Virus record (IMG/VR): IMGVR_UViG_3300025929_000001
Location: 1 to 64,000 of that record
Reading direction: 5' to 3' (one strand)
DNA: 64,000 nt
Origin: a virus
Positions 1 through 60,500 of the stretch are shown in pieces. A program made the translations under genes and the position numbers. Under the pieces are notes generated by a model that saw only the letters and a program-made list of their open reading frames with translations, ran no database searches and was not told the origin of the DNA. Every line of letters starts with the position of its first letter. Positions within the stretch are counted from its first letter, which is position 1.

Positions 1-409
1 CAACCATTTCCGTAAGTAAACTTCCCGCAGTGCAACACAATGGGGTCCGGGCCATCTATACTAGGTAAGGATACCGACCTCCCCATCTGGCTTCTCCAAC
101 GCCAATACCGCAACACTAAACCCCCACAACACCCCTAGCGCACACGGCAACCCCACTACAAGCGCACCAAACACCCTCCCCCATACCAACCCCTTACCCT
201 CCCATTAAACAGCGCACAACCCCATTTAACCCCCTTGCCCAGCCTCTCACAACCAGCCGTTAACCAGCCCGTAAGTGACCGTACCCCCATCTCCCCAATT
301 CCCAATTCCACCTGTCTAAAAAATTTAAAATTTTACAATGTTCCCCTATCAACACACAACTAAACCCCAAAATTCACCCATAAGACCGCAATAAACCCTA
401 AATTTCAGC

Positions 410-3169: not shown

Positions 3170-3583
3170 ATGCCAAAGAAATTCGCAACCTACCCAAACG
3201 AGTTCTTCGACCAAGTTAGGATTCGGCTTGGTGTGGCCAACGATTATCAGCTCGCGCGTGCTGTGCAAATCGACGGTAGCACCATCAAACGCATACGGGA
3301 AGGCGGGCTACAGCTCAGCGCCGCCAACCTGTTAAACATCTATGACCACACTGGTTGGTCGATCGAGGAGCTCCGTTCCCTGTTGTATCAGCGTATTATT
3401 GTGCGCGACCAATGGCGCAACATTACCCGCTTCTTCGAGCCCGAACTGCAAATAAAGATTAAACCAATTGAAGAAACATCAGATGTGCGGCGAGCAATGC
3501 AGCGTTTGTCTCGCCTCAGCAATCAGGAGCCTGAACCCTTCGAAAGACGTCAGCCTCGAGCTGACAGACGAATTGTCGGTTAA
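3170..3583 (+). CDS. XRE/Cro-like HTH protein, paralog 1
   Basis: AGGAG SD; YPNEFFD...NDYQLARAVQIDGSTIKRIR...LLNIYDHTGWSIEELR. Confidence 0.75.
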   Translation: MPKKFATYPNEFFDQVRIRLGVANDYQLARAVQIDGSTIKRIREGGLQLSAANLLNIYDHTGWSIEELRSLLYQRIIVRDQWRNITRFFEPELQIKIKPIEETSDVRRAMQRLSRLSNQEPEPFERRQPRADRRIVG

Positions 3584-11370: not shown

Positions 11371-11960
11371 TCGAACTTAAACCATGCCCGTTCTGCGGTA
11401 GCGAAGCTGTCTGCAAATATGATAGCGGGAACGAAGTCTGGAACCAGTCCTGGCAATGCAAGTGTTCTAAATGCGATGTACCAACCGCTAAATTTTTCGG
11501 CTCCAATAGTTGGGCTAGAAATAAGAAAGAAGATGCTAGCGCCGAACGTCAAGCAATTGAAGTTTGGAACCAACGCGCACCCGTAGCGCAGCAGGAGCCG
11601 GGCGCATGGCTATACGTTTGCTCAAAACCGGGAAAGCGAACGGTCTACGCCAGCGTTGACGAGAATGACACCGGCCATTGGCCGCTCGACCAGTGGACGA
11701 CCGTAACGAAACATCCACTCTATGCCGCACCCGTCGCAGCGCAAGCCGAGCAGGTGTACGAATCAGGTTGCTATACGCCAAGACCGCCAGCCGAGCAGGG
11801 CGAGCGCAAGTCGGTACAGGATGATATTTGCAATGCCTGCCCGGATGCTTATGCATGCATGTACAAGTGCCGGTGCAAGCTCAATGACGTTCCGATGCGC
11901 AAGTTGTTGCGCCTTGCCGCACCCGCAGCGCCAGCCGAGCAGGGCGAGCGCAAGTCATGA
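11367..11960 (+). CDS. Lar-family (restriction alleviation-like) mosaic protein
   Basis: LKPCPFCG...CSKC...AIEVWNQR, followed by linker-joined modules. Confidence 0.7.
   Translation: MIELKPCPFCGSEAVCKYDSGNEVWNQSWQCKCSKCDVPTAKFFGSNSWARNKKEDASAERQAIEVWNQRAPVAQQEPGAWLYVCSKPGKRTVYASVDENDTGHWPLDQWTTVTKHPLYAAPVAAQAEQVYESGCYTPRPPAEQGERKSVQDDICNACPDAYACMYKCRCKLNDVPMRKLLRLAAPAAPAEQGERKS
11785..11956 (+). repeat. exact 28-bp direct repeat CGCCAGCCGAGCAGGGCGAGCGCAAGTC (11785-11812 and 11929-11956)
   Basis: read directly; encodes PAEQGERKS twice. Confidence 0.9.
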
Positions 11961-21720: not shown

Positions 21721-24700
21721 ATGACCAAGGCTGCATTGCCGAGGAGAGTTGCTACCTCTCTGCCCCAAGAAACATCTAAGCCTGCCCGATTTACTGCACC
21801 GATGCGATTTGCAGCGGCTGCAAATCGGATGATTCCTCGCGATCTGTCTGGTAATAATTTCCATGCATTACCCGGCGGCAGTGTATCTCTTGTGCCCGCA
21901 CTGTACAACGGCGTCGGCTTACAATCATGGTTGCCAGGCGCTGGCGGCAGTGGGTCGATTCCCCTAACTGCATCTGCTTTGAGGTACGATTCTCCAATTA
22001 CAATGTTGGCGATTGTCAAGCCACCGTCAACCAGCACTTTCAACATTAGAACTTCAAGTACTACAGGGTCGCCCTTAATTTGGCAATTGAGCTCTACTGG
22101 ACTTCAGACCTTAACAATCTCAGGTGTTGGTAGTAAAGGGAGCACAGTCACGGCAATCCCTTTAGGGTCGTTCACTGCTATTATTTGTCAGTACACTCCC
22201 GGAACTACTGGCGGCACAAAATTCTATTTCCCGGGCACTACTCAAACGGTCGCGGGTAGTACGGGTAATGCTACAACTGGCACCGGTCCGGTGATATCTG
22301 GTGGCGGTACGGGTGCGGGACAGTGCGCACTCTATGTAGAATGGGATGGGATCTTAACTGACGCCGAATGTAGAGCGTTGCTGACAAATCCGTTCTCTGC
22401 CTTCGAATCTAACGCGCCCTACAGTAACCGTTCAAGGCTGCAAGTCAGGACTTCACCGGTTCGATACGTGCGGGATAGCGCTAACGGCTCGGATGTTGAT
22501 CCTGGTGTGTTCTGGTCTGAAATACAAGCGTTCGACGTTAACGGCGTAGCCCTTGCGAATTCGGCGAGTCAGTACACGTTCAGCCAAGCTGTTGATACAA
22601 GTTCTGTTGCAAATATACCCTATCTATATGACGGGTTGATGAACACGAACGGAGTGATTATCTCCGGCGCCGGCGTTCATACCGCTACTCTTGATCTAGG
22701 GTCAATCGTCCAAGTCTCAAAGGTGCGCATCGGTCACTACCCGACGGCCACCTTCCACAACACAAAGACGGAAATATCACCAGATGGTCAGACTTGGTAC
22801 ACGCTGTATGATTCAACTGTCTCTGGTGAGTATGTAGAAACAACCTCAGGCAAGAATTATCTGCCGCCAAGCTATACCTACACGGCACCCGTCGCATCGA
22901 CGCCGCCTACACTTCGCACGGACTGGTTCAACGCTACTGAATCGACGAACCTTAGTGTGGTCACGTCGACCACTGCACACGACGTCCTGATTGCTTACGC
23001 AGCTAGCGATAATAACAACACGAACTTTACATTTCCGTCAGGATTTACCGCACTACAACAGCTTCATCCGACATATGATGCCAGCGTACTGAACGTAGGC
23101 ATCAAGCAGGATGCATCTGGTAGTGAAGGTACGTTAACACTCACATCCCCTGATGCAATTATCGGTGGCGTATTAGCGTTCTCAAATGTTGACAACGTAA
23201 CGTCGTTGGACGTTGCGGCCCAGGGCGTGCTTGGTTCTGGTGGACCAGATTTTACCGCAACAGCGTCCCTAACCACCGTCACGAATGGCTGTCTGCTGGT
23301 CGCTATTGTAGACGAGGACGTAGCAAACCCGGTAAGTGTTACTTCAACTACGGTCGCTAGTTCTCCTGCGCTGACTTGGACTAAAGTTCGTCACATCAAC
23401 AATGGCGCATACGCAAACGTCAGCGTATTCACCGCTACCCAGACGACCAAGGGGGCCATATCCGTCACGTCAACATCGACGGGTTATACTGGTCAGTCTG
23501 GCATTGTGCTGCTGGCTTTGCGTCCAGCGACCACTGCTGCGGCTGGAACCACGTACCCCGTTAGTATCACTGAAGCTGTAACCGCATCGGACACCAATGT
23601 AAGTAACGGATCGTTGCCAGTAACTCTTTCAGAAGCTGCGGTTGCTGCCGACAGTCTCAGTGCTATTAAGACCGCCCCGGCTAGCATCTCCGAAGCTGGA
23701 ACTGCGGCCAACACCGCTACAGCATCGACGGTCGCACCTGTCACAATCTCCGAAGCTGCGACTGCTGCGGATAGCTCTGTTGTTATCAAAACTGCACCCG
23801 CTAGCATCTCCGAATCTGCAACTGCTGCTGAAAGCTCGACGCGCACCACTGTAAGTCCGACCGCAATCTCTGAGCCCGCAACTGCCGCAGACGCTGTTGC
23901 AACGACGAACGTTAGTGTGGTCAACAGCGCTGAAGCCGTAACTGCTGCGGAAGGTTCTGACGCGCTTGTCGTACGTGCAGTTAGCATAGCTGAATCTGCA
24001 ACTGCTTCCGACTCGTCGACTAACACGGTAGTTCTGGGCGTGCCTGTTACTGCACAGCTCTGTTATTTAGAGATTGATTGGGATACCCATGATCTCGGTA
24101 TCTATCCGGGTCGTATTAACGCTATTCGTCTGTTGGACGCACAGGGTAACAATCTACTCATCGGCGCAACTTGGAATAGCAATCTTGCCAATGGCGGAGA
24201 AAAAAGCACATATACGGATGGTAACAACATATATCTCGTTGATGAAAATCCGAGCACGTATGCTGACTTATCTTCATATGGCAACGCAGGCGCTAGTGAC
24301 TATATAGGTTGGAGTTTTGAGAATTCACCATACCTGACTGAGGACGGCTATGTCGACGCTGTCGCATTGGAGATCGATTGGTCGCCTGCGCCTGGTGACT
24401 CTCGTATCCCTAACTTTTACATTTATGGTTATCCCCTTGAGGGCAGCGACTTCCTTGAGATCAACGCCTATACTCCGGACAATTTTGCTAACGGCTTGAC
24501 CCATATTGATTTACCACAAATCACGGACATACCTAAGCCTGCTGTCAGGGGTAAGTCTCTGCGGTTAGAATTTTCTGGTTTAGAAGTTCCGTCCAATGGT
24601 GCTGCAAGTCTGCAGATATTTTGGCTGTACGGCACAGACCGAGTAAATGAGCCTGTTTTTTCAAACAGAACCTCTGGCGGATCAACAACGAATCAGGTTA

Positions 24701-27213
24701 CATACTCGTTAATCAAAGGCTCTATTGCGCCCGACCATGATTACGGTTATACGTCTGGGGTAATGCCTTTAACCAACATCAATCTTGGCTATGACATAGT
24801 TCACAATACATCCTTCTTTGCGGCAATAATGCCCGACCCAGAGGGGAATGCAACAATTCAAGTCGATACGGTTGGCGGGCTTCTGTATAGGCCTATCTCG
24901 TTTAACGTCCAAGCCGTAACCGTAAATCAAGCCGCGACTGGTCAAGCGCAGCTTGCAAGTCTGAAGTTCTTTATAACTTATGACGGTATCCATTATCATC
25001 AGCAATATTACACCGACACGTATGAGATATTAACTCCGCAAGAGCCTGCATATCTCGTTAATGGTAACTTTAGTAATGACTTTCTGGTAACGCCATTTGC
25101 CGAAGAGACAATTACAGGCACAATCTACGCAGTAGGTGTGTCTGAGAACGCTGGCGCTTATGATGACGCAGTCGTATCCGCACAATTGCCGGTCACAGGC
25201 GCTGAAGCGGGTAGCTTGGTTGACGCCGCAACTGCGTCTAGTGTCTTGCTGGTGGTCACTAACGAGTCTGCAACTGCTAGCGAATCGGAAACTGCTGCGG
25301 CGTCTAAAGGTGCTGCTATCACAGAGACTGCTACGCTAACGGACTCTGAAAGCAATACGGTTGCAGCTAGCGCAGCTATCAGCGAAGCTGGCGCTCTGTC
25401 TGACTCCGAAAATAGCACTGCTGTCAAGGGTGCTGCAATCTCCGAAGCGGGTACGCTCGCTGACGCTGAAACTGTGACGTTGGTTGCGGTTAGTGTGGTC
25501 AGCGAACCCCTTACCGGTAGCGATGCAAGCACTGTGCAGATGCAGAACCTTGCAAGCGTCAGCGAAGCTGGTAGCGCAAACGACCAGTCTGCAACGGGTG
25601 CGAACGCTGTGGCGGTTGCTGCTAGCGAGTCCGCAACGCCTGCGGATAGCTCCAGCGTAGCTGCTATCGACGCAGCCTCAGTTAGCGAGTCGGGTTCACT
25701 GGTGGATGCACCAAGCGTAACCGCGTCGTTCGTATCTGCAACGACGGAATCCGCTACGTCCGTTGATTCGCAAACGGTAAGCGGCGTGCGTCCTGCATCA
25801 ACGTCGGAAGCTGCTACCGCCTCTGACAGCAACACTGCTGGAACTGCTACGTCTGCAAGCAACTCGGAGTCGGGTTCTGCTGCTGACACAACCGTTGCAG
25901 CAAAAACGACCAACAGCGCAATCTCGGAACCGTTGACTGCAAGCGACACCGAGTCTGTGAGTGCTGTGGTGGTGGCTGCAAACACGGAGTCCGGTGCTGC
26001 AAGCGATGCGCTGACCGTAACCGCTATCAACTTGGTCGCTGTTAGCGAACCTTTGTCTGCAAGCGAGTCAGTCACGCTGCTGGCTGCTGGCACTGTAACC
26101 ATCACAGAAACGGTCGCACTGGTAGAAGCTACGAGCGTTAATGTCGCGGGTACTGCTGCTATCACTGAAGCTGGTGGCGCTGCGGATGCGCCTGTTGGAC
26201 TTAGAACTACCAACGCGGCAGCTAGCGAGGCTGTAACGCCGTCTGATAGCGAATCCGTATCCGCTATTATGGTTGCTACGGAAACGGAACCCGCAACCGC
26301 GAGCGAAAGTTCCAGCCTTACGCAAGCTACTACCGCGAGCACAACCGAAGCTCTTGCTGCTGACCACACTCAGGTTCTTCTTGCTGCGGGTACGGTCACA
26401 GTTGTTGAGGTCTTGAACGCTGCTGAAGCGCCAACGGCTGCTGCAACTGTCAACAGCGCAGTGACCGAATCCGGTAATCCCGCGGAGTCTGTTGCTGCTA
26501 CCGCAGTCATGCCAGCCAACACCACGGAGCCGGCAAGCGCCGCGGAACAAGTTGCGCAAGGCAGTGTGGTCAACGGGAATACGTCGGAAGCTGCTGCGCC
26601 AACGGACGCTAGTGCGCCTACATTATCCAGCACGCGCAACGTGACGGAATCCGCAAACGCCCTGGAGTCGGTCAGCAATACGGCCGCGCTAGGTGTCAGC
26701 GTCGCAGAAGCTGCAATTAGCTCCGATACATTGGTTGTGTCTGCGCAGTACCTTGTGGCGCAGGCGGAAGCTGCAACGCTCGCAGATGCAGCAATTGGTG
26801 GATACAACACCAACGCGATAGTCTTGAACCCTGCAACTGCTGGTGACAGTGTTGATGGTCAGAAGATAAATGACGCGGGTGCTGCTATCACAGAAACACT
26901 GGTGCCTAGCGAGCAGTCTGTAACCCGTTTGGATTATGGTGTAAATGTCACGGAAGTTGTAGACAGCGATAGCGATGCAAGTGTGCAGATGATCTATGTT
27001 GTGTCACAGACAGAACTTGCATCGTTGCGTGAAAGCGTGTATGTTTACTTCCTAACGGAACACAAGCAATATCCGCTCGCAGGTAAGTCAAGTGCATTCC
27101 CGTCAGCATCTAAAGCAACCAGCTATCCGCTTAACGGCCAGTCCATTGTGTACCCGTCAAGCTCTAAGGCAAGAAATTATCCACTGTACGGTAAAAATAG
27201 GAGCTACCCATGA
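21721..27213 (+). CDS. giant 1830-aa Ala/Ser/Thr/Glu-rich repeat protein with lectin-like domains (putative fibre)
   Basis: LamG-like N-terminus, discoidin-like TLDLG..EISPDG.TW, two blocks of 20-aa xxE.....D repeats, C-terminal 9-aa YP repeats. Confidence 0.8.
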   Translation: MTKAALPRRVATSLPQETSKPARFTAPMRFAAAANRMIPRDLSGNNFHALPGGSVSLVPALYNGVGLQSWLPGAGGSGSIPLTASALRYDSPITMLAIVKPPSTSTFNIRTSSTTGSPLIWQLSSTGLQTLTISGVGSKGSTVTAIPLGSFTAIICQYTPGTTGGTKFYFPGTTQTVAGSTGNATTGTGPVISGGGTGAGQCALYVEWDGILTDAECRALLTNPFSAFESNAPYSNRSRLQVRTSPVRYVRDSANGSDVDPGVFWSEIQAFDVNGVALANSASQYTFSQAVDTSSVANIPYLYDGLMNTNGVIISGAGVHTATLDLGSIVQVSKVRIGHYPTATFHNTKTEISPDGQTWYTLYDSTVSGEYVETTSGKNYLPPSYTYTAPVASTPPTLRTDWFNATESTNLSVVTSTTAHDVLIAYAASDNNNTNFTFPSGFTALQQLHPTYDASVLNVGIKQDASGSEGTLTLTSPDAIIGGVLAFSNVDNVTSLDVAAQGVLGSGGPDFTATASLTTVTNGCLLVAIVDEDVANPVSVTSTTVASSPALTWTKVRHINNGAYANVSVFTATQTTKGAISVTSTSTGYTGQSGIVLLALRPATTAAAGTTYPVSITEAVTASDTNVSNGSLPVTLSEAAVAADSLSAIKTAPASISEAGTAANTATASTVAPVTISEAATAADSSVVIKTAPASISESATAAESSTRTTVSPTAISEPATAADAVATTNVSVVNSAEAVTAAEGSDALVVRAVSIAESATASDSSTNTVVLGVPVTAQLCYLEIDWDTHDLGIYPGRINAIRLLDAQGNNLLIGATWNSNLANGGEKSTYTDGNNIYLVDENPSTYADLSSYGNAGASDYIGWSFENSPYLTEDGYVDAVALEIDWSPAPGDSRIPNFYIYGYPLEGSDFLEINAYTPDNFANGLTHIDLPQITDIPKPAVRGKSLRLEFSGLEVPSNGAASLQIFWLYGTDRVNEPVFSNRTSGGSTTNQVTYSLIKGSIAPDHDYGYTSGVMPLTNINLGYDIVHNTSFFAAIMPDPEGNATIQVDTVGGLLYRPISFNVQAVTVNQAATGQAQLASLKFFITYDGIHYHQQYYTDTYEILTPQEPAYLVNGNFSNDFLVTPFAEETITGTIYAVGVSENAGAYDDAVVSAQLPVTGAEAGSLVDAATASSVLLVVTNESATASESETAAASKGAAITETATLTDSESNTVAASAAISEAGALSDSENSTAVKGAAISEAGTLADAETVTLVAVSVVSEPLTGSDASTVQMQNLASVSEAGSANDQSATGANAVAVAASESATPADSSSVAAIDAASVSESGSLVDAPSVTASFVSATTESATSVDSQTVSGVRPASTSEAATASDSNTAGTATSASNSESGSAADTTVAAKTTNSAISEPLTASDTESVSAVVVAANTESGAASDALTVTAINLVAVSEPLSASESVTLLAAGTVTITETVALVEATSVNVAGTAAITEAGGAADAPVGLRTTNAAASEAVTPSDSESVSAIMVATETEPATASESSSLTQATTASTTEALAADHTQVLLAAGTVTVVEVLNAAEAPTAAATVNSAVTESGNPAESVAATAVMPANTTEPASAAEQVAQGSVVNGNTSEAAAPTDASAPTLSSTRNVTESANALESVSNTAALGVSVAEAAISSDTLVVSAQYLVAQAEAATLADAAIGGYNTNAIVLNPATAGDSVDGQKINDAGAAITETLVPSEQSVTRLDYGVNVTEVVDSDSDASVQMIYVVSQTELASLRESVYVYFLTEHKQYPLAGKSSAFPSASKATSYPLNGQSIVYPSSSKARNYPLYGKNRSYP
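23560..27030 (+). repeat. 60-bp (20-aa) degenerate tandem repeats: 8 copies at about 23560-24040 and about 31 copies at about 25135-27030
   Basis: ISEAATAAD-type units align vertically in the 60-nt lines. Confidence 0.85.
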
Positions 27214-27773
27214 CACTCATCGTTGAAGATGGATCCAAATTACCGGATGCCGAATCTTATATCTCTGTTGACGAATGCACCGCATATCATGTTAAGCGGG
27301 GTAACACCGTTTGGGGTGATATGTCTTTGCAGGAGATGGAAGAAGCGCTTGTTCGCGCAACAGATTTCATGCGAGCCCGTTACCGAGGCAAGTGGAAAGG
27401 TCACGTTGCAACTTATGAACAGGGTTTGGATTGGCCGCGTATGGGTGTCAAGGTTACTGACGGGATATTGGCTAGTGGCCCTTATCCGTATGTGACTGCA
27501 TATCGTCGGCCTTACTTGCCTCCACAGATATTGCCGGATAACGTCATTCCGAAAGAAGTAAAGAACGCTTGCGCTGAGCTAGCATTCCGCGCTGCCCAAG
27601 GCCCGTTGATCATTGATGAAACCAGGCAACCAATCCGTGAGACTGTTGGCCCCATCACTGTTCAATATAGCGAGTACACATCGCAGCAAGTGTCCTATCC
27701 AATGATTGACGATATGTTGCGACCTTTCTTGACCACCGGAGGCAATAGTAGCGTCAAGCTGACCCGCGTTTAA
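27210..27773 (+). CDS. head-tail adaptor (DnaT-like domain family)
   Basis: LIVEDGS..PDAESYISV, AL.RATD, Q.LDWPR, IP.EVK.AC.ELA, ETVGPITVQY. Confidence 0.85.
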   Translation: MTLIVEDGSKLPDAESYISVDECTAYHVKRGNTVWGDMSLQEMEEALVRATDFMRARYRGKWKGHVATYEQGLDWPRMGVKVTDGILASGPYPYVTAYRRPYLPPQILPDNVIPKEVKNACAELAFRAAQGPLIIDETRQPIRETVGPITVQYSEYTSQQVSYPMIDDMLRPFLTTGGNSSVKLTRV

Positions 27774-27790
27774 GAGTTGTATTTTAGTCG

Positions 27791-27819
27791 TTGCATGTGG
27801 TAAAGGACTGTGTTACTAT
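27791..27819 (+). promoter_or_regulatory. promoter for neck/tail genes (TTGCAT-17-TACTAT)
   Basis: same TTGCA -35 family, in the intergenic gap. Confidence 0.65.
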
Positions 27820-27848
27820 CCGCGTAGTTCGTCTAAACAGAGATTCAC

Positions 27849-28229
27849 ATGGACTTCTACGATAGAGCCGCTGCAACGACCCTGCGCATGATCAAGCAAT
27901 ACGGCATGCCTGTGACGTTGCGCCGGCAGTCCGTAGGAAACTATGATCCCTCTACCCTCGGTGCCACAGTGCAGACCGAGGATTCGACACGTTATATGCT
28001 TAAGCTGGATCAACCAGGCTCGCAGATTGCGCAGCGGTTCGGCAGCAACTTCGAAAAAGAAACTTTGCGTGAACGCAATGAGAAGTGGGGCTACATGGAT
28101 GCAAACGGCCCTGCTCCGCAGTTGCAAGATCGCATTATCATGGAAGGTATCGAATACACCCTCCAAGACGTGCAGATGTGTGGCCCGGGCGGCAAAGTTG
28201 TGTTCTATCAGCTTGTGATGCGTGCATAA
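27849..28229 (+). CDS. head closure protein
   Basis: FYDR....A..MI..YG..VTL.R....YDP; gene position. Confidence 0.75.
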   Translation: MDFYDRAAATTLRMIKQYGMPVTLRRQSVGNYDPSTLGATVQTEDSTRYMLKLDQPGSQIAQRFGSNFEKETLRERNEKWGYMDANGPAPQLQDRIIMEGIEYTLQDVQMCGPGGKVVFYQLVMRA

Positions 28230-28726
28230 TGGCAAGCTCTCGGCATACTGGATTTAAAGTCCGAGATGATGTAATGAATTACATCAAAGGCAGCAAGGGC
28301 TTCATTCAGGCTGTTCACAAAGCTGCGTTGGAAGAAGTGGGTTGGCGGTTGATTAAGTATTCTGCGGTTGGTGATCCGACACTTTGGCACCCGCCGTACT
28401 GGCCGAAAGGCTATTCGCCCGGACACCTCCGCGCTAACTGGCAAGTTGGGATTGACTCTAAGCCTGCTGGTGAGATTAAAGGCGTCGACCCAATGGGTTA
28501 CAAGACGCAAGAGCGCTACAAGTTCGGACGCTGGACGATTAACCACAAGTTCTATTTCGTCAATACTGCGCCGTATTCGTACCGTATTGAAACAGGCACA
28601 CATTCGACGCAAGTGCCACCCGGTGGGATGGTTGGGCGTGTAAAGCGAGAATGGCGTCAGATAGTTCAACAAGCGGCAATGGACGTTAGAAGTACAGGCA
28701 AGTGGCGCAACCAAGGAACTGAGTGA
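28229..28726 (+). CDS. HK97 gp10-like neck/tail-completion protein
   Basis: G.LRANWQV, N.APY..RIE.G.HSTQ.PPGGMV. Confidence 0.8.
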   Translation: MASSRHTGFKVRDDVMNYIKGSKGFIQAVHKAALEEVGWRLIKYSAVGDPTLWHPPYWPKGYSPGHLRANWQVGIDSKPAGEIKGVDPMGYKTQERYKFGRWTINHKFYFVNTAPYSYRIETGTHSTQVPPGGMVGRVKREWRQIVQQAAMDVRSTGKWRNQGTE

Positions 28727-29367
28727 TGTCCATTCTTACCATTAAGTCGATATTAGAGCAAGCGATTGCCGACATGCCGGGATTGATCCCTAGTGTGGCT
28801 ATCGAAGCGTCTAACAATGGTGAGTTCCAAACTGCGGAGCCACACGGACTTGTCAACGGTTTAGTTGTAGAAGTATCAGGCCATACAGGTTCCGTCCCCG
28901 ACCTGAATGGTGAGTATTATGTTGTTGTGACGGCTGCGAATCGGTTTAAACTGCAACATATACTAACGAAAACCCCAATAGCAAGCGCGGCACCGGGGGT
29001 AGGCGGGGTTATAATCGCTAAGCTAATAGCATGGGAAGGGGTAAACTTTAAACCGTTTGCCGGGGTTCCTATGCAGCGTGTTAATCTCATCTGGTCACAG
29101 CCGCAAAACCCGTCGTACGGTGACAATCTAGCCCGCGAATCTGGATTTATGCAAGTCACCTTGTATTACCCGTTAGGCTTCGGAACACATGATGTATTAA
29201 CAAGAGCTCAGTTGATCAAGTCAACTTTCCCAAGGGGACACTCTTTCAGCAATAACGGAATTACGGTGCACATCGATGGAACCGCAGAAATTATGGGCGG
29301 CGTACCACTCGAGGAGCATTATGTCGTACCTGTCAGAATCCCCTTTTGGGCGGACGTTTACAATTAA
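28726..29367 (+). CDS. tail terminator (DUF4128-like) with inserted HGL..G beta module
   Basis: AWEGVNFKP, G.MQV...YP.G.G......RA..I...F.RG, PVRIPF. Confidence 0.75.
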   Translation: MSILTIKSILEQAIADMPGLIPSVAIEASNNGEFQTAEPHGLVNGLVVEVSGHTGSVPDLNGEYYVVVTAANRFKLQHILTKTPIASAAPGVGGVIIAKLIAWEGVNFKPFAGVPMQRVNLIWSQPQNPSYGDNLARESGFMQVTLYYPLGFGTHDVLTRAQLIKSTFPRGHSFSNNGITVHIDGTAEIMGGVPLEEHYVVPVRIPFWADVYN

Positions 29368-29380
29368 CTGAGGAACAATC

Positions 29381-30532
29381 ATGACTATCGCAACTGGCGT
29401 AAATAAGCTTCTTACGTTCAAGAAGCAAGCTGGCCTGGGCGTCGTCGCTGGCGCATCCGGCGGCCAAAACCTGCGTCGTACCCAATCCACCCTGGACCTG
29501 AAAAAGGCCACCTACAGCTCGAAAGAACTGCGCCCATCGCAACAGATCGCCGATATGCGTCACGGCGTGCGTTCGGTCGAAGGCACGATCTCTGGCGAAC
29601 TGTCCGTGGGCACCTACCAGTCCTTCATCGAGTCTGTGTTGCGCCGCGCTGCTACGGGCACCACGACCTTCGACTCGACCGGTGGCGCTGTTACGGGCAA
29701 CATTATCACCGTGACTGGTGATAAGACCGGCCAGACTGCAAAAGTCGGTACCGTCGTCGCAGCCGCTGGCGTCAACTACCTGATCGCAAAGTGCACGACC
29801 GCACAATCGATCCTGGTTCGTCTGGATGGTGGCACCGCAGTCGCTGGCACGATGACAGAAGTCGGCAAGCACACCTATGTACCGCAGACCGGTCAGACCC
29901 GCGACTACTACACCATCGAACACAACTTCCAGGACATCGTCCAGGCCGAGCGTTTCACGGACTGCATGATCACCCAGATGGACGTGAAGCTGCCTGCGTC
30001 CGGTATGGCGGGTGTTGACTTCATGGTCAAGGGTCTGAATGTGGTCACAGGCACGACGGGTTACTTCACTTCGCCTGTTGCCGCAACGTCGGGTTCGGTG
30101 CTCGCGGCTGCAAACGGCGTGTTGACGCTGGCTGGTGCCCCGATCGCTCTGATCACCGGTATGAACTTCTCCATCAAAGGCGGTCATACCACAATCGGCG
30201 GTGTCGTTGGTTCGAACGTTGAGCCAGACATCTTCCCAGGCAACGTCGAGGCAGACGGTCAAGTTACCGTACTGTTCCAAGACGCCACCATGCGCGACAT
30301 CTTCATCAACGAAACCGAAGTTTCGATCGTCGCTGCATTCACCGGCTCCAATGCCGCCAACGCTCCTTTCGTTTCGATTTGCTTCCCACGCGTTAAGCTG
30401 GGCGGCGCACAGAAGGACGACGGCGAAAAAGGCCTGGTTATGACGATGCCGTTCACGGCACTCGAAGCGCTGCCGACCGACACCGGCTCGTATCAAACCA
30501 CGGTCTTTATCCAGGACAGCGCATTTGTTTAA
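29381..30532 (+). CDS. major tail tube protein
   Basis: LRR....L.L.K....S.E.R...Q..D.RHG...V.G.I.GELS; biased codons; terminator downstream. Confidence 0.88.
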   Translation: MTIATGVNKLLTFKKQAGLGVVAGASGGQNLRRTQSTLDLKKATYSSKELRPSQQIADMRHGVRSVEGTISGELSVGTYQSFIESVLRRAATGTTTFDSTGGAVTGNIITVTGDKTGQTAKVGTVVAAAGVNYLIAKCTTAQSILVRLDGGTAVAGTMTEVGKHTYVPQTGQTRDYYTIEHNFQDIVQAERFTDCMITQMDVKLPASGMAGVDFMVKGLNVVTGTTGYFTSPVAATSGSVLAAANGVLTLAGAPIALITGMNFSIKGGHTTIGGVVGSNVEPDIFPGNVEADGQVTVLFQDATMRDIFINETEVSIVAAFTGSNAANAPFVSICFPRVKLGGAQKDDGEKGLVMTMPFTALEALPTDTGSYQTTVFIQDSAFV

Positions 30533-34400: not shown

Positions 34401-37400
34401 AACCAAGCGAGCGCTTACTCGTTTGCTATCCAAAATCTTGCGCTGAACGAAGCTGAAAGGGAACTCTATACCGCCAAGCTGCAACAGATCCAGTCTGAGA
34501 TTGCACTGCGTAAAGACCTTGCTAACGTCCAGGCAGCAGGCGCAGGCATTGCTAGCGACAGCCCTGATGTTGTGGGCAAGCTTGCAGATGAAACCGCTAG
34601 GAAGTGGAAGAAGGCTGGCGAGGACATCAAGAAGTCGCTGCGGGATGCGTTTGGTGATGTTGGCGGTGCTATCGGCGACATGTTCAAAGTGTACGCTGAC
34701 GGTCAAGCTAACACCATCAAGATCAACGACGAGTACAACAAGAAACGTGCTGCCGCACTCGGTACCGAGAACATGCAGCAACGTCTGCTTGCTGCTGAGC
34801 AGGAAAAGGCCAACGAGCTTACCGCTAACCAGATGCATCAATGGGGCGGTATGGCGGATGCTGCGTCCAACTACTTTGACCAGTCCTCGACCGGTTACAA
34901 GACGTTGCATGCGGTTGCCCAAGTGTTCCACGCTGCTGAAATGGCGCTCATCATTGCCAAGCAAGTCCCGCTTGCGATCAACGCTGTGTTGGGTCAAGGC
35001 GCAGGCGATCCGTACACTGCCTTCGCTCGCATGGCTGCAATGGCGGCGGTTGTGACTGGTCTTGGTGTGGCCATCAGTGCTAGCCAGGCCGGTGCAATGC
35101 GTGAGGACGTTGCTAAGAAAGCGCAAGAAACTCAAGGAACCGGAACTGTACTTGGTGACAGCACCGCTAAGTCCAACTCGATCCAAAAAGCACTCGACCT
35201 TATTGGCGACAATTCCGACGTCACGCTGCGCTACACTTCGCAAATGGCGCAGTCGCTGAAGAATATCGAAAGCGGCATCGGTGGACTTGCTAACATCATC
35301 TTCCGCACTAGCGGCATGACGTCGGGTCAAAACTTTGGTGTTCAAACTGGTATCCTGGCCACTAACAAAGGCGACCCGATCGCAAATGCGCTTGGTCTGG
35401 GCGGCGTTGCAAGCACGCTCGCTAACATGACCCCATTCCTGGGCGGCATCATCAACAAGCTGCAAAGCCTTTGGGGTAAGACCGAGCAAAGCATCGTTGA
35501 CACCGGTCTGGAAGTTAAGGGTTCGATTAACGACCTGATGAACGGTACGGGTGTGCAGCAGTACGTCAACGTTGAGCAGAAAAAGACTAGCTGGTTCGGT
35601 CTGGTTAAGGACTATAGCTATAACACAGTCGAGCAGAACGCGGGTTCTGAGATTGCGCAGCAGTTTGGCACCATCTTTACCAACCTGAACAAGACCCTGA
35701 CGGCTGCCGGTGCAGCGCTCGGTATGGGTGGCCAGCGCCTGCAAGAAGCTTTGGCTACTACGCAAATCAGCGTTGACCCGACTAGCTTTAAAGACCTGAA
35801 AGGTCAAGAGCTCGTCGATGCGCTGAACGCAGTTGTCAGCAAAGCGTCCGACCAAGTCGCGCAAGCTGTATTGCCCGGCCTGGACAAGTTCATGCAAGTT
35901 GGTGAAGGCTACGCACAGACCGCGATTCGTGTGGCTACCGGTGCCGAGAAGGCGCAAGTATCCCTCCAGAAGCTGGGCATCAGCGCAATCAACTATGGTG
36001 ACATCGTCAACAAGCAAGGTGACGTTGCTGCGGAAATTGTGCGTCAGTCTTTGGTTGCACGCGAGACGAGCAGCCAGTTTATCATCTCCTGGAGCGGGAT
36101 GTTCAACACCATTGCTTACACGACCAGCGGCATCGGTGACATCATGAGCACCCTGAACGGTACTGCTGATGAAATGATTGCGACCTACAAGTCGCTCGTT
36201 GAAATCCGTCGTATTATGATGGCCACAAACAGCAATCCGAACAACAATCGGACGGGTGGCAACCTGACGCAAGCTACTGTCGCTGGTGCGGGTGGCGTTG
36301 AAGACCTTGCTAGCGGTACAAGGGACTTCCTGGACAAATACTTCTCGGATACCGAAAAGACCCGCATCGAAACGCAACGCTTGACGGAAGAATTTAACCG
36401 CCTGGGTCTGCAACTGCCGCGCTCCAAAGAGGAGTTTCGTTCTCTGCTGGTTGGTATCGACCAAACGACCGAAGCAGGTCAAGCGCTGTACGGTAGCATG
36501 ATTGTGCTGTCGGGTTCGTTTGCTGACCTGATGGACAGCGCTAAGAATGCTTCCGCTACGACCAACACCATCATTGACGACCAAATTGCTCGGGTTAACG
36601 ACCTGAGCGAGAAGGCGCAGCGTTGGTTAGCGGTTCGTAACAGCGCAAGTGATCTGCAAGACAGCCTTACCGAGAACATGGGCGGCAAGGTTGACACTAG
36701 CGCACGTCAGGAAGCTCTGTGGGCGATGCTTGCACAAGGCGACAAGATCAGCCCTGAGCAGCAAATCTCGCTGGCGACCGAGCTGCAAAATCTGATACTG
36801 AAGAAGTACCAGACCGAGAAAGCTAACGCGACCGACCTGCTGAATGTGGCTAAGTCGCTGCGTAGCTACCTGGACAGCTTGAAGGTTGGCGATCTTGCTC
36901 CGGGTACCAGTACCGAGAAGCTGAACGAAGCTAAGTCGCAGTACCAACTGACGCTGAGCAAAGCACAAGGCGGTGACGCAACGGCTGCGGGTGATCTGCA
37001 AAACAAGGCGCAAGCTTACCTGTCCCTGGCTCGTGATTACTACGCTTCGTCTGACCCATACAAGGAGATATTTGCTAGCGTCTACTCGTCGCTTGATCAA
37101 TACGCTACGACCGCAGAAAGCGCTGAGCAGTTGCAAGCTGAAGGCAATGCAATTGCCCAAGGCCAGATCGACGAGCTGAGCAAGCTGCGCGATATCGTAA
37201 GTGTGGTCATGGAGCACGCAGATACCAACTACGAACAAACCGTGACCGAGCTGCAAGCATCGCTCAACGCTCTGCAGATGATCAATACGTCACTGAATGT
37301 ACTGTCGACGGTACCAGACCTGCTCCGCGGTATGCCTGCGGAGCTGGCTGCGAACTTGCAGCAATCGCTTGGTGGTATCATCAACGCGGTTGGAAGTGCG

Positions 37401-37996: not shown

Positions 37997-40900
37997 ATGG
38001 CCGACGTAATCCGCACAGTAACAGACAACGCATCATTCCAGGCAGCATGCAACACCGCGAATGGATTTGATTGCGTCGGCCAAGCGGCTAACTTTCGCAT
38101 TCAACTCACCAACAGTTTTGTTCCAAGTGGTATCAGCGTAGGTGCTGGAACCAGTAGCGATGACTATAAAGTCATTGTCGAAGCTGCACCCGGCATGGGT
38201 CACGCAGACCTTGCGAACACCGGCGCATACAACTACGGCAATCAGGGTATCGAACTGACGCTTAACAACGACAGCGCGATTATCGCTCATTCTGGTGTGT
38301 GGTTTCACAACCTCCGTATTACCTCCAATGCATATCACGGCTTTCTTGCGCAGAGCGGTGGCAATGGCGTATTACCACGCATCAACGAATGTAAGGTACG
38401 CTGTGAAGCATACGGCGCTATCGGTATCCAAGCATACCAGTCTCTTGAAGTCTACTCCTCATTGTTTGTGCGTAGCTCGACAAGCGGTGGCCCGCTGATC
38501 GACGGCTCCTGGAGCTTGACCGCATTCTTCAGCACGTTCGTACTCCTGCCAGGCGCTACCGCAGAGAAAGCGCACTCGGGCGGATGGGGCGGTCAGTACT
38601 CTGTCTTGATCGACAACCTGTATGTCGGTTTTGCAAACCCTTACGACGGTTCGTTCTGGTGCGTCAACAATTACTCGAACTACGGTAGCGCGAACAACTG
38701 CACAGTCGTATCCAACATTGTTGTTGATACGAGCAACGACTTCCGCGCAGGCTCCAGCGTCCGTGGCCTGGGTACTAGCGAGATGATATCCACGCTGGAC
38801 GGTCGCGGTAACAATCGCGGCAACTTCCCTGATCCAGGCGCAGTGATGTACAATCCGGCAGAAGCTGCTGCGATCCCAACCATCACCAGTCAAACATTTT
38901 CGAACGGTACGCTGACACTCAGCGGCACCTATACCAACAACGCCACGGGCGGATTGCTCGTTGTCGATCCTCTGTACCGGACTGCGGGCGTACCGCGTCA
39001 ACAAACCAGCAGCATCTCGATCAACTCCGGTAACAAGACGTTCTCAGTTACGCTGTCCGGTATGCCGCGTGAGATTTACCGCGTCCCCGTTATGCGGCTG
39101 TCGAACACTGGTGGCCTTGGCCCTAAAGCGACCGTCGGCGTCAGTGCAATCACGAACTACGTTGCGCTCGGTGCAAACCCAACTCCTCCGCCTACCATCC
39201 TGCAACCGAACCGGTGGCAGCCGGCATGGAGCAGCAGCACAAACCTCGGCGACCGCAAAGTCGAACATCGCCGCAACGGTCAAGTCCTTGCAACCTACGG
39301 TGAACTTGGCGATCTGCTCGGGCCCGACCAACGTTACGGCGGCACGCAGTTCCCACTCTTGCCAGGTGACGAAATTCTGGTCTACCCTGCACGCTATTAC
39401 AAAGCCGTCTGGTTCGGCATGCCTAGCGGTGGCGCTGGCGGTAATTCGTCAAGCCCGCTGACCGGTGTTACAGTTCGCGGTCTAACCATTAACGGCGAGC
39501 GTCCTGTTATCTGGTGGAAGTACCTTGACGGGACGGAAGGTCAATACGGTTACGCCAAAGGTAACGGCGCGATCTACGGTACGGGTGTCGTCTATGTAGG
39601 CTACACCGGCGACGGTTGTGTGTGGGATAACATTGACATTATCGACGTCGATGGTTGGACGGGTAAGTCGTTGCTGTACATCAACAACGGCGTTGAAGGC
39701 ATGGTTACGTTCAAGAACATGCGTGTTATGGGTGCTATCATTAGCGGTCATAACGGCATCCTGTCTGCGCATGGTACCCGTTGCGGTCTGACGTTTGAGA
39801 ACGTGGAAACTGCATACCTTGGCGGCGGTGCGACAACCCCTCCGGACATCAACGAAGCACTTGCGCATGGCTACTATATCACGCGTCACGAGCCTAACGC
39901 TCAAGGCGTGTACCCGCAAATTAACTTCAAAGGTTGTTACTTCCATCACGGCTGGTACGGTCACTTGCTGAAGGTTCGTAACCCGCAACTGACGGTTGAA
40001 GGCTGCTATTTCATGGGCGTCAACTCCAAAGCGTTTGGCGACTCGCTGACCCCAGACTTCTGGCGCATGCCTCAGTCGGGTGCAGCACCTTCTGTTAACG
40101 ACTCCGCAGAAGTTTCAAACCTGGATATGCCGAACGGCGGTACGCTGACGTTCATCAATAATGTGGTTGTCAAGAACTACACCGGTCGCGACGTTGGTAT
40201 ATTCTGCCTGAATTGGGGTGCTGAATCAAACATCGGTTGGAGCGGTGGCGAAGCTGGCGTCGACGGTAAAATTACCATCGAGAACAATACGTTTGTGGCC
40301 ATGTCGAACAAGGTGCGGGTTGAAGGCAGTAGCGGTAGCGCTGTCCCTCCGGTTCCCTTGGGCTTCTCCAATGGCCAAGACCATCCCACCAGTGATACAT
40401 GGCCACATGACCGCGTGCCTGTATCCATCCGGAACAACGTGTACGCGGGCTTCGTCGACGAAAGCTGGAAAGAACCAAGCGCACAAATCCTCACCATCGA
40501 CCAAATTAACCTGCCGGGTCGTGATAGCGGTGTGCCGTTCTCGCCGAAGGTCACGCAAGGTTCGATTGGTACTAATGGCGGTCAAGGTCGTCCGATGTAC
40601 GCTCACCGCACGTCCTGGGCTACTCGTACCGACACAAACAAGGGCGGTGTTGGCGACTTCCAAAGCACGCTGTCTGCTACGGGTAACGGTACCGGCCAAC
40701 TGCCGATGATAACCCCATTCCGCAACACAGATGCTCAAGCACTGTCAGGCGGTCAGAATGGCGCAGTGGCTTATCCGCTGCAATACGAATGGTCTGTAAC
40801 CGGTTCGTCTGCGGTGACTGTGAACAGCGGCACTGCTGGCGCTCAAGCTGACGAAGTTGTCCCATCTGGTAGCAGTGGCGGTACGGGTGGAACCGGCGGC

Positions 40901-52454: not shown

Positions 52455-52873
52455 TGTTTGGTTATGACCTCGACGAGCTAGAAAAGCTATCCAACTGTCT
52501 GTTCTTTGCGGTTGCGCTTTTCTGCCGTCGACTCGTCAAGGGGGAGCGCGGTTATTTCACGATGCGCAAATCGGACTACGGTCGCTTCCCTCACTTCCTC
52601 TATGTGCGCGTAGACCCGCTTGGCAAAGAACGCTTTGTGTCTTTCGTGCCCAACGAACCTATTCCACGAGACTTCCCGCCACCCTTCTTTAAGGGTCATG
52701 TACAGTGGGGAGATCCTAAGCCGACTAAAGGGTGTCAAAGAAATGAGCTACATGACTGTTTGGCTGATTGTATGGAACATGTGGTGGATTCAAATGCACC
52801 CTGCAAGCACTACCAGCAAACACCCTGCCGCAAACGGCAAGCACCCGGCAAGCGCATAAAAATAACCCGCTAG
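52454..52873 (+). CDS. hypothetical protein
   Basis: TGATG-coupled; SNCL.FA..L...RKS..G.FPHFL...F.G.V.WGD. Confidence 0.6.
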   Translation: MFGYDLDELEKLSNCLFFAVALFCRRLVKGERGYFTMRKSDYGRFPHFLYVRVDPLGKERFVSFVPNEPIPRDFPPPFFKGHVQWGDPKPTKGCQRNELHDCLADCMEHVVDSNAPCKHYQQTPCRKRQAPGKRIKITR

Positions 52874-52897
52874 TACCTACCTAGCGGGTTTTATTTT
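52856..52897. terminator. bidirectional intrinsic terminator between the convergent arms
   Basis: ATAAAAAT-AACCCGCTAG-loop-CTAGCGGGTT-TTATTTT. Confidence 0.8.
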
Positions 52898-52918
52898 AAA
52901 CAGCTTAAAACGCTTGTA

Positions 52919-53524
52919 TTAGCTTTGCGTCATCATGTAAGACGTCCAAGGGTGCATTTCATCTGTGCGGTATTCGAAGTCCTCCAAGACCAGCAGCATT
53001 TCCCGGAACAGTACCAGCGCGCCTTCGAACTGGACTAATAGCCCGTTCTCTTGTTGAATCAAGTTATCCAGGATTGCGGTCATTGGGTTGTCGTCTGTTT
53101 TAGACGACATGCGGTTGCGCACATTGGTGATGCGCTCGATCTTAGCGGTGCTAGTAGACTCGCGCGCTTCGAACTGTTTAACCTGCTGTTCCGTCATCTG
53201 ACGCATGTGCGACAGAATGCTAGTGTGGTTAAAGTCAATACGCGGGTCGTTCATAAGCGCATTCAACATCGCTGCAAACTCCTGCATTACCCGGTCACGC
53301 AGTGGAGGTTGGTTCTTTCCAACTTGCCCGGTGCGGTCGTATTCTTCACGCCGCAGCACGTCACCTAAGATGTCGTAAGCTTCTTGCACGCGCTTGAATA
53401 TAGTACCATCGTCATTACCTTTATCCGGATGCCACATCTGCGCAAGGCTGCGGTAAGCCCTTTTAATTTCATCTGCGGTAGAGTCTTTCGCAACTCCGAG
53501 GACTTCATACAGGTTCTTGTTCAT
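52919..53524 (-). CDS. J-domain (DnaJ-like) co-chaperone
   Basis: LYEVLGV...EIKRAYR.LA..WHPDK...F..VQEAYDIL.D..RR..YDRTG. Confidence 0.9.
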   Translation of the reverse strand: MNKNLYEVLGVAKDSTADEIKRAYRSLAQMWHPDKGNDDGTIFKRVQEAYDILGDVLRREEYDRTGQVGKNQPPLRDRVMQEFAAMLNALMNDPRIDFNHTSILSHMRQMTEQQVKQFEARESTSTAKIERITNVRNRMSSKTDDNPMTAILDNLIQQENGLLVQFEGALVLFREMLLVLEDFEYRTDEMHPWTSYMMTQS

Positions 53525-55728: not shown

Positions 55729-56025
55729 TTATTCTGCGGTTACTTCACGCGAGAATGGCGCAAGTACCAAATTAGTCGCTTTTACAAGCTCGGTCATTGT
55801 CTCGTAACTGTCTACGGTCATAGCGGCATAGAATGTGCCGTCAGCTCTGTAGTGATAACCATACGCAGTCCAACGATAACAATCAATTAATCGGTTGGTA
55901 CGGTATGCACCCGTAGCCGGATAGATGTGTTCGGGCAACCAAGTTAATTTTACTCCCGCAGCGTTAAGCGGAAAGCTCTTTTGCAGAAGCTTAGCGAGCC
56001 TTTGTCTGGTGCGCCCGATTGTCAT
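55729..56025 (-). CDS. hypothetical protein
   Basis: coupled ORF in the - gene run. Confidence 0.6.
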   Translation of the reverse strand: MTIGRTRQRLAKLLQKSFPLNAAGVKLTWLPEHIYPATGAYRTNRLIDCYRWTAYGYHYRADGTFYAAMTVDSYETMTELVKATNLVLAPFSREVTAE

Positions 56026-56405
56026 TTCTTCAACTCCGGTAGGTGCAAGTATTTGACCGGGTACACGTCAATGCCGCGTGCTCGCGCTTGGTCGCACATG
56101 TTTCTAGTCCCGCTACCGCCTGGGAATGCAATAATCAGGTCGGGTAAACCCCAATCAAGCATCCACATATTGCGAACAGGTCCAGCGTTGTTGCCGTAGT
56201 ACTGCCAGTTAGCTGGCATCTTGATGATGGGCACACCACGTTCCGCAGCCCAAGCTATGGCCATGCGGTCTGCACCTTTTGCATCACCGCTAATAACGCA
56301 GAACTGGTTGGAGAAGTAGGGCTCGCACTGAGACATTGTGTGGTTAAACAATTCCAGATGTGCGAAGTCCCTACCGCCGCAGACAAGTATTCGTTTTTTA
56401 TTCAT
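56022..56405 (-). CDS. SLOG-family protein (YspA/DUF2493-like)
   Basis: ILVCGGRDF, ISGDAKGAD, ANW..YG..AGP.RN..M, AFPGGSGT..M. Confidence 0.88.
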   Translation of the reverse strand: MNKKRILVCGGRDFAHLELFNHTMSQCEPYFSNQFCVISGDAKGADRMAIAWAAERGVPIIKMPANWQYYGNNAGPVRNMWMLDWGLPDLIIAFPGGSGTRNMCDQARARGIDVYPVKYLHLPELKK

Positions 56406-58730: not shown

Positions 58731-59660
58731 TTAAAAAAGTTGTTGGGACATTGCACACGGATACTGATAGTTATTGCGTCTAGCATCCTCGTTTACAAGG
58801 TCGTTGAGCTCCATGTAACCTAGCATGTTGTAGATTGCGCGGCTCTCGTAAATCGAGCTAAGCCGATCATAATTAAAACCCTTACGATCCAACATGTTAG
58901 CGAGCTGTTGCTGCTCTAACTCTGTAAGTGTGGTAAAATGACGCCCGTTCTCATGCTTGCTTGGACTGTCCTTGGAAACCGCGATTGGGCCGTGTTCACT
59001 GGTAAAGATGCTTCCAAACGCAGCAGCCTGAATCCAGGAGGACGAGTCACAAGAATGCCAAGGGTAGCGCATCATCAGGTTGGGCGACGTCATACCAAAC
59101 CCATGCACTTTGAGCTTCGCACGACCCGACCCGTCCATCATGCGTTCCCACACGCGGTCTAACCACACTTCTTGGTCTTTAGCCGACTTACCGACCAGAC
59201 CTCCAATCGTGATGTACGAGTAGCGCTCCACATACCAGTCAAGATAACGTATGTCCTCACCGTAGTGGAAGCAGGGTAGCGGTTTAGCATCCTGCCGTTC
59301 CATCTCGAGTTGGTTTTGCCAGGTCTTTAGCGGATCACCAATGCCGTCAAGTACGGAAGCCATGACAGCACCATCTTCAACGCGTAGGATGTCCCGGTTG
59401 CGACGGATGTAATCACAATAATCATCAATGCTAATATGCACGCCAAGGCTGTGAGCCGAGAAAGCACCTGAGTCCAGGAACACCTTGTGGCCTTGTTGTC
59501 TGATGACATCGACGAAGCGCTGTCCAGATATGTAATGATAGGATTCCAAAATGTGGGGTACACAACCGACGATTTCTTTTTCGATGTCTGTGAGTTTTTC
59601 ATAACGTGCCTGTGTCTCTCGATAGTTATTTGTGAAAACTGCCGCAAGGAACAAATTCAT
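58731..59660 (-). CDS. dpdA: DpdA-like DNA 7-deazaguanine transglycosylase (TGT fold)
   Basis: FLDSGAFSA, LD.IGD, PCFH.GE, IGGLV, VHGFG, PW.SCDSSSW; clustered with folE/queDCE. Confidence 0.8.
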   Translation of the reverse strand: MNLFLAAVFTNNYRETQARYEKLTDIEKEIVGCVPHILESYHYISGQRFVDVIRQQGHKVFLDSGAFSAHSLGVHISIDDYCDYIRRNRDILRVEDGAVMASVLDGIGDPLKTWQNQLEMERQDAKPLPCFHYGEDIRYLDWYVERYSYITIGGLVGKSAKDQEVWLDRVWERMMDGSGRAKLKVHGFGMTSPNLMMRYPWHSCDSSSWIQAAAFGSIFTSEHGPIAVSKDSPSKHENGRHFTTLTELEQQQLANMLDRKGFNYDRLSSIYESRAIYNMLGYMELNDLVNEDARRNNYQYPCAMSQQLF

Positions 59661-60160: not shown

Positions 60161-60387
60161 TCCACCTTAATACCGAACGCTTCCAGTTTTTCTTCCAGCG
60201 CATCGAGTTCTTGTAAGAGTTCGCGCAACACATGCGGACGAATTTTATCGACAAAGTCGTCGTTTTGATACCGACCGCCAAAAGTGACGCCCAACGCGAC
60301 ACCACTTTGGATTTCTCGGTAGACTTTCCGCTTGTCCACGTACAGTTGTGATATAGCGTTTGCTTCTTGCATATCGCTAAGTTTCAT
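60157..60387 (-). CDS. hypothetical protein
   Basis: AGGAG SD. Confidence 0.65.
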   Translation of the reverse strand: MKLSDMQEANAISQLYVDKRKVYREIQSGVALGVTFGGRYQNDDFVDKIRPHVLRELLQELDALEEKLEAFGIKVD

Positions 60388-60443
60388 TGTGGTAAAGCTC
60401 CTATAATAGCGCTGCCGTACGTTTAAACAGCGGGCAACGCGTT

Positions 60444-60477: not shown

Positions 60478-60500
60478 GATTTAAAACGCTTAAAACGCGT

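Follow-up and report, generated by a model that had tools for sequence, protein, structure and literature searches.

The window analysed here is the first 64 kb of a complete IMG/VR virus record of 95,417 bp (G000). A 127-bp direct terminal repeat (window 1-127 = G000 95291-95417) is probably the k-mer assembly overlap of a circular contig, and the physical ends and packaging mode are unknown. A microbial fuel cell metagenome, the one sequencing run listed as containing the DNA in full, is the probable source. The stretch of interest lies within a tail gene:

28726-29367, plus strand, tail-terminator gene, 213 aa (phrog_179, E = 7e-19; PF13554 precomputed on all homologs)
28942-29075, GA/TC-poor island of 134 bp within the tail-terminator gene
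29381-30532, plus strand, gene at the tail-tube position, directly downstream of the tail terminator (phrog_290, E = 4e-45)

The assignment as tail terminator rests on the profile match together with the position between a tail-completion gene and the tail-tube-position gene. The core family match covers residues 97-212 and is preceded by an extra N-terminal region; the island corresponds to residues 73-117. The tail terminator of this phage has no close relative among cultured phages, and a megablast search of the island region against cultured phages returned no match.

Within 28942-29075 a recount gives exactly the four GA/TC dinucleotides that the initial annotation had reported (GA at 28968 and 29035; TC at 29015 and 29067). 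The mean per 133 dinucleotides is 15.3 (s.d. 2.9) in the 64-kb window and 15.1 (s.d. 3.1) genome-wide, which places the island at z of about -3.9, and the low-GA/TC region reaches 28939-29085. The motifs GTTTAAAC at 28944 and TTTAAACC at 29047 are both present, and codon use within the island (ATA, CTA, GTA, GGG) is as had been described. Genome-wide the GA/TC rho is 0.90-0.92. Mutation bias was rejected as a cause of the deficit, given that outside the islands ATC makes up 48% of Ile codons, TTC 60% of Phe codons and GTC is freely used, and that GA and TC at codon junctions are only mildly low there (0.86 and 0.85, respectively).

Synonymous shuffling had been put forward as the check that could refute a DNA-level signal, and the island count falls outside the shuffle range. 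For the fixed window 28942-29075, 12.4 GA/TC are expected in a within-gene shuffle (P = 0.0004) and 12.9 in a shuffle on genome codon usage (P < 0.0002). The minimum window across the whole tail-terminator gene gave P = 0.0024 and P = 0.0002 with the same two shuffles, and a 120-bp window gave P = 0.0007. Strong absolute depletion was found in just two of 116 tested CDSs, the tail terminator and 64802-65551; the shuffle P of the tail terminator by itself is borderline once corrected for the 116 tests. The island peptide is poor in Asp, Glu and Ser, which brings the GA/TC expectation down from 15 to about 12.5-13. GA is avoided on both strands over about 120 bp by synonymous codon choice together with the near-absence of Asp/Glu and TCN-Ser codons.

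Full-length homologs of the tail terminator are 45-86% identical to it, and within this family the island peptide ranks among the better conserved portions. Viral and metagenome contigs supplied DNA for 13 homologs; P0002-P0004, the nearest ones at 83-86% identity, remained outside the DNA comparison. Ten homologs have a matching GA/TC-poor stretch, with the minimum window starting at nt 181-263 and holding 1-3 GA/TC in each. These ten share only 44-65% mutual identity (median 52%) and are near saturation at synonymous sites. Gene-wide depletion reached P ≤ 0.007 in nine of them and 0.046 in the tenth. The GC content of the loci ranges from 41 to 58% (nine loci computed), and in several of the 20-kb homolog loci the tail-terminator island is the sole GA/TC-poor island. 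Four homologs (L008, L009, L011 and L021) do not show the depletion; L011 belongs to G002, a relative that bears the modification enzyme DpdA (see below), yet it lacks the tail-terminator island. From these four it follows that the island at this position is dispensable or movable.

Pooled over the ten homologs, GA was observed 20 times against 55 expected and TC 13 times against 66.5, whereas the controls AG (79 vs 84) and CT (64 vs 75) were normal. Half of the pooled GA (10 of 20, by alignment count) come from an almost invariant acidic codon at W-E/D (Glu in nine homologs, Asp in L003), where GA is unavoidable. Loss of both GA and TC with normal AG and CT is a strand-symmetric signal, which points to duplex DNA rather than mRNA. 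Furthermore, synonymous-codon identity between homologs is 0.606 in the island, compared with 0.419 ± 0.017 in a resample that itself avoids GA/TC; in the rest of the gene it is 0.372, with 0.323 in a random resample of that rest. Conservation at third codon positions, 0.52 at baseline, peaks at 0.75 in the centre of the island. The synonymous sites of the island are thus conserved beyond what GA/TC avoidance needs, and the island is a sequence element, not a mere absence.

Words conserved in the homologous islands are GCAAGC, GG(G/T)(G/A)(T/C)AGGCGGGGTT and AACCTTACCGCATGGGA. The two motifs stressed at the outset, GTTTAAAC and TTTAAACC, are not conserved among these islands, and GGGTAGGCG was found in only four of the ten. 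A 9-bp inverted repeat, CGGTTTAAA / TTTAAACCG (28942-28950 and 29048-29056), brackets the island in this genome only and was discarded as unconserved in the homologs. The initial annotation had inferred that a DNA-level signal is superimposed on the protein code and that the islands are selected elements rather than a by-product of composition. Both inferences gain support from the count outside the shuffle range, the depletion kept by ten homologs at the same gene offset and the excess of synonymous conservation. This comparative evidence, drawn from sequence alone, is the decisive support for what we take to be a selected DNA-level element.

The tail-terminator island belongs to a larger family. 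Across the genome we found 11 GA/TC islands at z ≤ -3.3 (133-dinucleotide window) and 14 at z ≤ -3.2 (119-dinucleotide window). Only GA/TC has many, the nine other strand-symmetric dinucleotide classes giving 0-3 islands each. Most of the islands are intergenic; two, the tail-terminator island and 64958-65235, lie wholly within genes. Members other than the tail-terminator island include:

81-277, unstranded, C/A-rich GA/TC-poor island near the contig start
13676-13909, unstranded, GA/TC-poor island in the intergenic region preceding terS, belonging to this family and containing TTGCCT-N18-TATACT
52755-52959, unstranded, GA/TC-free island where the late and replication modules converge (lowest window count 0 GA/TC)
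60351-60529, unstranded, GA/TC-poor island within the modification locus
64958-65235 (L027:958-1235), second coding-embedded island, in the minus-strand gene 64802-65551 (phrog_7864), with a 168-bp GA/TC-free run

Additional islands that had been suggested near 21290 and in the 29-52 kb gap did not materialize: the former holds 12 GA/TC per 133 dinucleotides and is not an island, and a scan of the latter finds none. In the islands all eight GA/TC-containing trinucleotide classes are depleted (0.16-0.46) and every other class is at 0.77 or above, with GGC and GGT spared. The islands are also rich in G-runs and TTTAAA-type tracts. The homologous genes of about 250 aa in G001, G002 and G004 carry the second coding island as well, where it coincides with a low-complexity linker.

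Beyond the middle of the window lies a set of DNA modification genes:

58731-59660, minus strand, homolog of the DNA guanine transglycosylase DpdA (phrog_887, E = 6e-81)
61316-63886, minus strand, preQ0 synthesis genes FolE (61316-61939), QueD (61943-62392), QueC (62392-63174) and QueE (63185-63886)

The DpdA homolog is 62% identical to that of the phages CAjan (over 94% of the protein) and Seurat, and 58% to that of iggy. Pfam TGT and NCBIfam searches of the genome miss it, the Pfam TGT model being too distant. The preQ0 genes are supported by Pfam matches (GTP_cyclohydroI 2e-66, QueC 7.5e-53 and PTPS 7e-15), by PHROGs matches (QueD 4e-40 and QueE 1.5e-59) and, for QueC, by a score of 169.9 bits on TIGR00364, for which the NCBIfam equivalog cut-off is 150.3. 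Membership in the modification system is met for the DpdA homolog and for FolE, QueD, QueE and QueC, and the DpdA and preQ0 genes stand in Queuovirinae gene order.

CAjan carries 7-cyano-7-deazaguanine (dPreQ0) in place of G at GA and GGC (PMC7544227), and in iggy it is confined to GA, with about 97% of sites modified (PMC10484667). By analogy with these two mapped homologs only, and without modification data for this phage, its DpdA may be expected to replace the G of GA steps with dPreQ0. Since GA is the mapped DpdA target, DNA in which both strands lack GA would stay unmodified. The trinucleotide pattern, with GGC and GGT spared, fits a strict-GA enzyme. Hence GA-directed 7-deazaguanine modification, which the initial annotation did not name, is the probable cause of the islands.

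Islands of this kind recur in relatives. This genome and the contigs G001-G004, which encode DpdA at 73-75% identity, carry 4-14 GA/TC-poor islands each, against 0-3 for other dinucleotide classes. We further measured GA/TC-free runs in units of mean spacing, with a threshold of ln(Nf)+3. Runs above this threshold number 2-5 in each of G000-G004, four in iggy and two in NP1, with none in CAjan or R7M, and dinucleotide classes other than GA/TC almost never pass it. A complete provirus without DpdA shows zero islands in the 20-kb stretch examined. For another homolog locus, L014, DpdA had been predicted for the genome; its contig is 63% complete. The islands thus accompany DpdA but not every DpdA, and they are no automatic consequence of the enzyme, because CAjan and R7M carry DpdA without islands. 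It is plausible, as an inference, that a several-motif enzyme such as that of CAjan makes motif-free DNA impractical, hence the lack of islands there.

The GA/TC-free runs of iggy include 3179-3286, 27694-27854, 39300-39456 and 60074-60225. The run at 39300-39456, inside the ORF 39259-39663, and one at 35221-35331 in NP1 each lie in a gene between QueE and the helicase, linked to 64802-65551 by gene neighbourhood alone. L008 and L009, both without the tail-terminator island, have zero-GA/TC stretches (L008:6827-7062 and L009:9327-9572) about 5 kb downstream in a Gly/Ala-rich tape-measure region. A tape-measure window of CAjan (11659-11789) resembles these stretches, and composition probably explains much of them.

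The islands share words as well as a deficit. Two 11-mers of the tail-terminator island recur in the second coding island, with their order and orientation preserved:

28979-28989, plus strand, word TAGCAAGCGCG, found elsewhere in the 95-kb genome only at 65053, in the second coding island
28995-29005, plus strand, word GGGGGTAGGCG, found elsewhere only at 65093; it contains the island-specific GGGTAGG

Across five genomes GGGGTAGG has nine copies in islands and three outside, a 71-fold enrichment. Copies of GGGTAGG fall in GA/TC-poor DNA in 5 of 12 cases in G000, 3 of 4 in G001, 3 of 4 in G002 and 2 of 2 in G005. The corresponding figures are 7 of 11 for iggy, where such DNA makes up 9% of the genome, 0 of 1 for CAjan and 0 of 2 for R7M. 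Among control words in iggy, the three composition-matched words compared directly stand at 0-10% and others range up to 60%. Other GA/TC-free runs of iggy also show recurrent GGGTAGG-type words, and near its right end a GA/TC-free run at 60363-60457 (L052/L053) has two G9 runs, then TAG or TAA. The tail-terminator island meets membership in the family, with GA and TC near-absent over at least 100 bp and the words GCAAGCG, GGGTAGG, CTTAC... and TTTAAAC shared. Readings of GGGGGTAGGCG as a G-quadruplex, an ops-like or a sigma54-like site, judged by eye only, were rejected for misfits in spacing or tract number and for absence from some of the homologous islands.

Could GA/TC be avoided for a reason other than deazaguanine? 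A nuclease, deaminase or ADP-ribosyltransferase that attacks exposed DNA at GA or TC, or the mechanics of GA/TC steps in wrapped or bent DNA, might produce the same deficit. Such an origin would accommodate CAjan and R7M, which have DpdA without islands, and the abundance of G-runs and TTTAAA-type tracts in the islands. It leaves to coincidence that, out of ten strand-symmetric classes, the dinucleotide avoided is the very one mapped as the DpdA target, that GA/TC-free runs are found in the strict-GA phage iggy and that the provirus without DpdA has none in the 20 kb examined. To our knowledge no GA/TC-directed nuclease, deaminase or ADP-ribosyltransferase exists for these hosts. We therefore consider this the best of the alternatives, though an unlikely one.

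A cluster of rare codons at the boundary between the N-terminal region and the core could instead slow translation for folding, with the GA/TC deficit as a side effect. The island does span residue 97, where the family core begins, and its codons in the window, L003, L006 and L007 are rarer than avoidance of GA/TC alone would demand (z -3 to -5). In L012 (z -0.9) and L005 (z -0.4) they are not rare, yet GA/TC is equally depleted. Nor does rarity predict a joint loss of GA and TC with AG and CT unchanged, and the same nucleotides are retained regardless of the codon preference of the genome. Codon rarity is a by-product of keeping these nucleotides across differing codon preferences, and a translational origin of the deficit appears highly improbable.

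An overlapping gene constraining the synonymous sites, for which an antisense 80-aa ORF at 28917-29159 is the candidate, and a conserved mRNA structure are both marginally weaker still. Antisense frame -2 runs uninterrupted through the island for 50-137 codons in all ten island-bearing homologs, but the four that lack the island leave this frame just as open (41-129 codons), so that overlapping-gene membership is not met. Shadow ORFs are in any case expected, since GA/TC-free DNA cannot hold TGA or TCA, and an overlapping gene would leave both the avoidance of GA and TC and the kinship with non-coding islands unexplained. As to mRNA structure, RNAalifold proposes a long-range helix CGGCAA/TTGCCG in which one pair is changed on both sides in three sequences. 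However, the covariation term is only -0.29 kcal/mol, with a consensus energy of -9.3 kcal/mol over 165 columns and a single-sequence z-score of 0.13, so that structured-RNA membership is not met, and an RNA signal would not strip GA from both strands. Chance, amino-acid composition or a recently acquired segment of foreign composition, to which the scarcity of Asp, Glu and Ser residues lends some colour by lowering the GA/TC expectation, is already refuted by the synonymous shuffles, by the depletion shared among ten deep lineages and, as regards the acquisition that had been named as a possible refutation, by full-length homologs 45-86% identical with the island peptide conserved and by unmet mobile-segment membership.

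Collectively these data favour, at a probability that we put at roughly 60%, a selected double-strand DNA-level element laid over the tail-terminator frame, namely a deazaguanine-free element recognized by a sequence-specific protein. Both the modification and the binding are inferred, and the exact role is unresolved. The GA-free stretch would remain ordinary, unmodified DNA on both strands and would serve as a platform for a DNA-binding factor that reads the guanine major groove, a reading that GA modification would block. With a vocabulary shared with the intergenic islands of the clade (GCAAGCG, GGGTAGG, CTTAC...), the element may form part of a network of islands. Vinyl- and ethynyl-7-deazaguanines almost abolish initiation by bacterial RNA polymerase, which the authors attribute to the G of the -35 box TTGACA (PMC4838386). 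The G of this box is a GA step, and by our own comparison the vinyl and ethynyl groups may be likened in size to the cyano group of preQ0.

Our best guess for the process served by such a protein-recognition element, in the absence of transcript data, would be transcription control of the tail-gene block, through a regulator, a site-bound pausing or antitermination factor, or an activator-dependent promoter. A replication or packaging nucleoprotein site would be the second choice. A plain sigma70 promoter is disfavoured. A scan of 28500-29600 gave 0 matches to a consensus sigma70 promoter in the tail-terminator island, and sigma70 promoter membership is not met, the TATACT and TATAAT in the window not being conserved in the homologs (by eye). 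A second promoter type, TTGCAY-N17-TANNNT, has six matches against 1.3 expected but is likewise not present in the tail-terminator island:

17301 (minus strand) and 17499, 19974, 27017, 27791 and 49583 (plus strand), TTGCAY-N17-TAnnnT sites with a GA-less -35 box, all outside islands
27791-27819, plus strand, sigma70-like candidate TTGCAT-N17-TACTAT in the gap that precedes the head-closure gene, outside islands and upstream of the tail terminator

Four of the six sites lie in short gaps of the late region, and GA/TC occurs in the promoter spacers. A promoter reading is weakened by these late promoters, which lie outside islands and one of which, at 27791, is already upstream. Intergenic islands do hold sigma70-like promoters with a GA-avoiding -35 box, for instance TTGCCC-N17-TAATAT ahead of 64631 and TTGCCT-N18-TATACT ahead of terS. 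Phyletic profiling for a trans-acting factor common to iggy and absent from CAjan and R7M gave no candidate.

More broadly, we can envisage that phages with a strict-GA DpdA retain roughly a dozen GA-free islands in each genome, so that control DNA stays readable within an otherwise hypermodified chromosome, with selection reshaping codons and amino acids in an essential structural gene across deep divergence. These islands would then be what unmethylated CpG islands are in vertebrates, but in a virus and arrived at by deletion of the target motif, not by exclusion of the enzyme. We regard this generalization as evenly poised between right and wrong.

The closest known systems are the DpdA-dPreQ0 systems of iggy and CAjan, which share with this phage a homologous DpdA (58-62%), the FolE-QueD-QueC-QueE set and the order of the replication and modification genes. 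Long GA/TC-free runs containing GGGTAGG words are a further trait in common with iggy, whereas CAjan has no GA/TC islands. The present genome is 95 kb long compared with about 60 kb for those of the iggy/CAjan type, and modification has been shown in iggy and CAjan, not here.

DNA sites within reading frames are familiar from the lambda ori within gene O and from pac sites within terS genes, including the Dam-methylation-sensitive pac of P1. The island resembles these in that a DNA-level site shares its sequence with a reading frame, and P1 pac offers a further likeness in that whether a short motif is modified governs its function. The island differs in that its signal consists in lacking a modification motif over about 120 bp, in that it lies in a tail gene rather than in an initiator or terminase gene and in that neither the bound factor nor the process is known. 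Vertebrate CpG islands, which tend to coincide with control regions, are also short, modification-free regions of deviant dinucleotide content. They are a conceptual analogue only, without evolutionary relationship, and their logic is the opposite one: they keep the target dinucleotide and escape the enzyme, whereas GA/TC islands lose the dinucleotide. Phages also avoid restriction sites and other motifs through selection on short words that is independent of coding, as here; that avoidance is genome-wide, whereas in this phage only about a dozen islands avoid GA/TC and the genome otherwise uses GA/TC freely.

GA-directed deazaguanine modification is known as a shield against restriction and Cas9. 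How a modifying phage keeps its own DNA readable is not addressed in PMC7544227 or PMC10484667. Term searches of the two texts found no mention of intergenic, promoter, depleted or under-represented regions or, for the CAjan paper alone, of devoid ones, and "unmodified" only for reference DNA and unmodified bases. What is added here is the orthologous conservation, the strand symmetry and the extra synonymous constraint of an island embedded in a coding sequence, which together are the strongest evidence of selection. A motif-free coding island kept over deep divergence would be direct evolutionary evidence that modification costs DNA recognition, the phage paying for a local exemption in its choice of codons and amino acids. 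GA/TC-free runs could also predict the target motif of a DpdA from sequence, strict-GA enzymes allowing islands and multi-motif enzymes such as that of CAjan perhaps not, and they could flag cis-acting sites in uncultured phages. Iggy, which is cultured, has published nanopore data and carries the same kind of runs, makes the idea testable at the bench.

Elsewhere in the window, a protein of 1830 aa (21721-27213, plus strand) is encoded between the head genes and the head-tail adaptor; it has no PHROG match, and R7M has a hypothetical protein of 1154 aa at the matching position. The replication module encodes a YspA/SLOG-family protein (56022-56405, minus strand; PF10686, E = 3e-15) and a DnaJ-domain protein (52919-53524, minus strand; PF00226, E = 7e-20).
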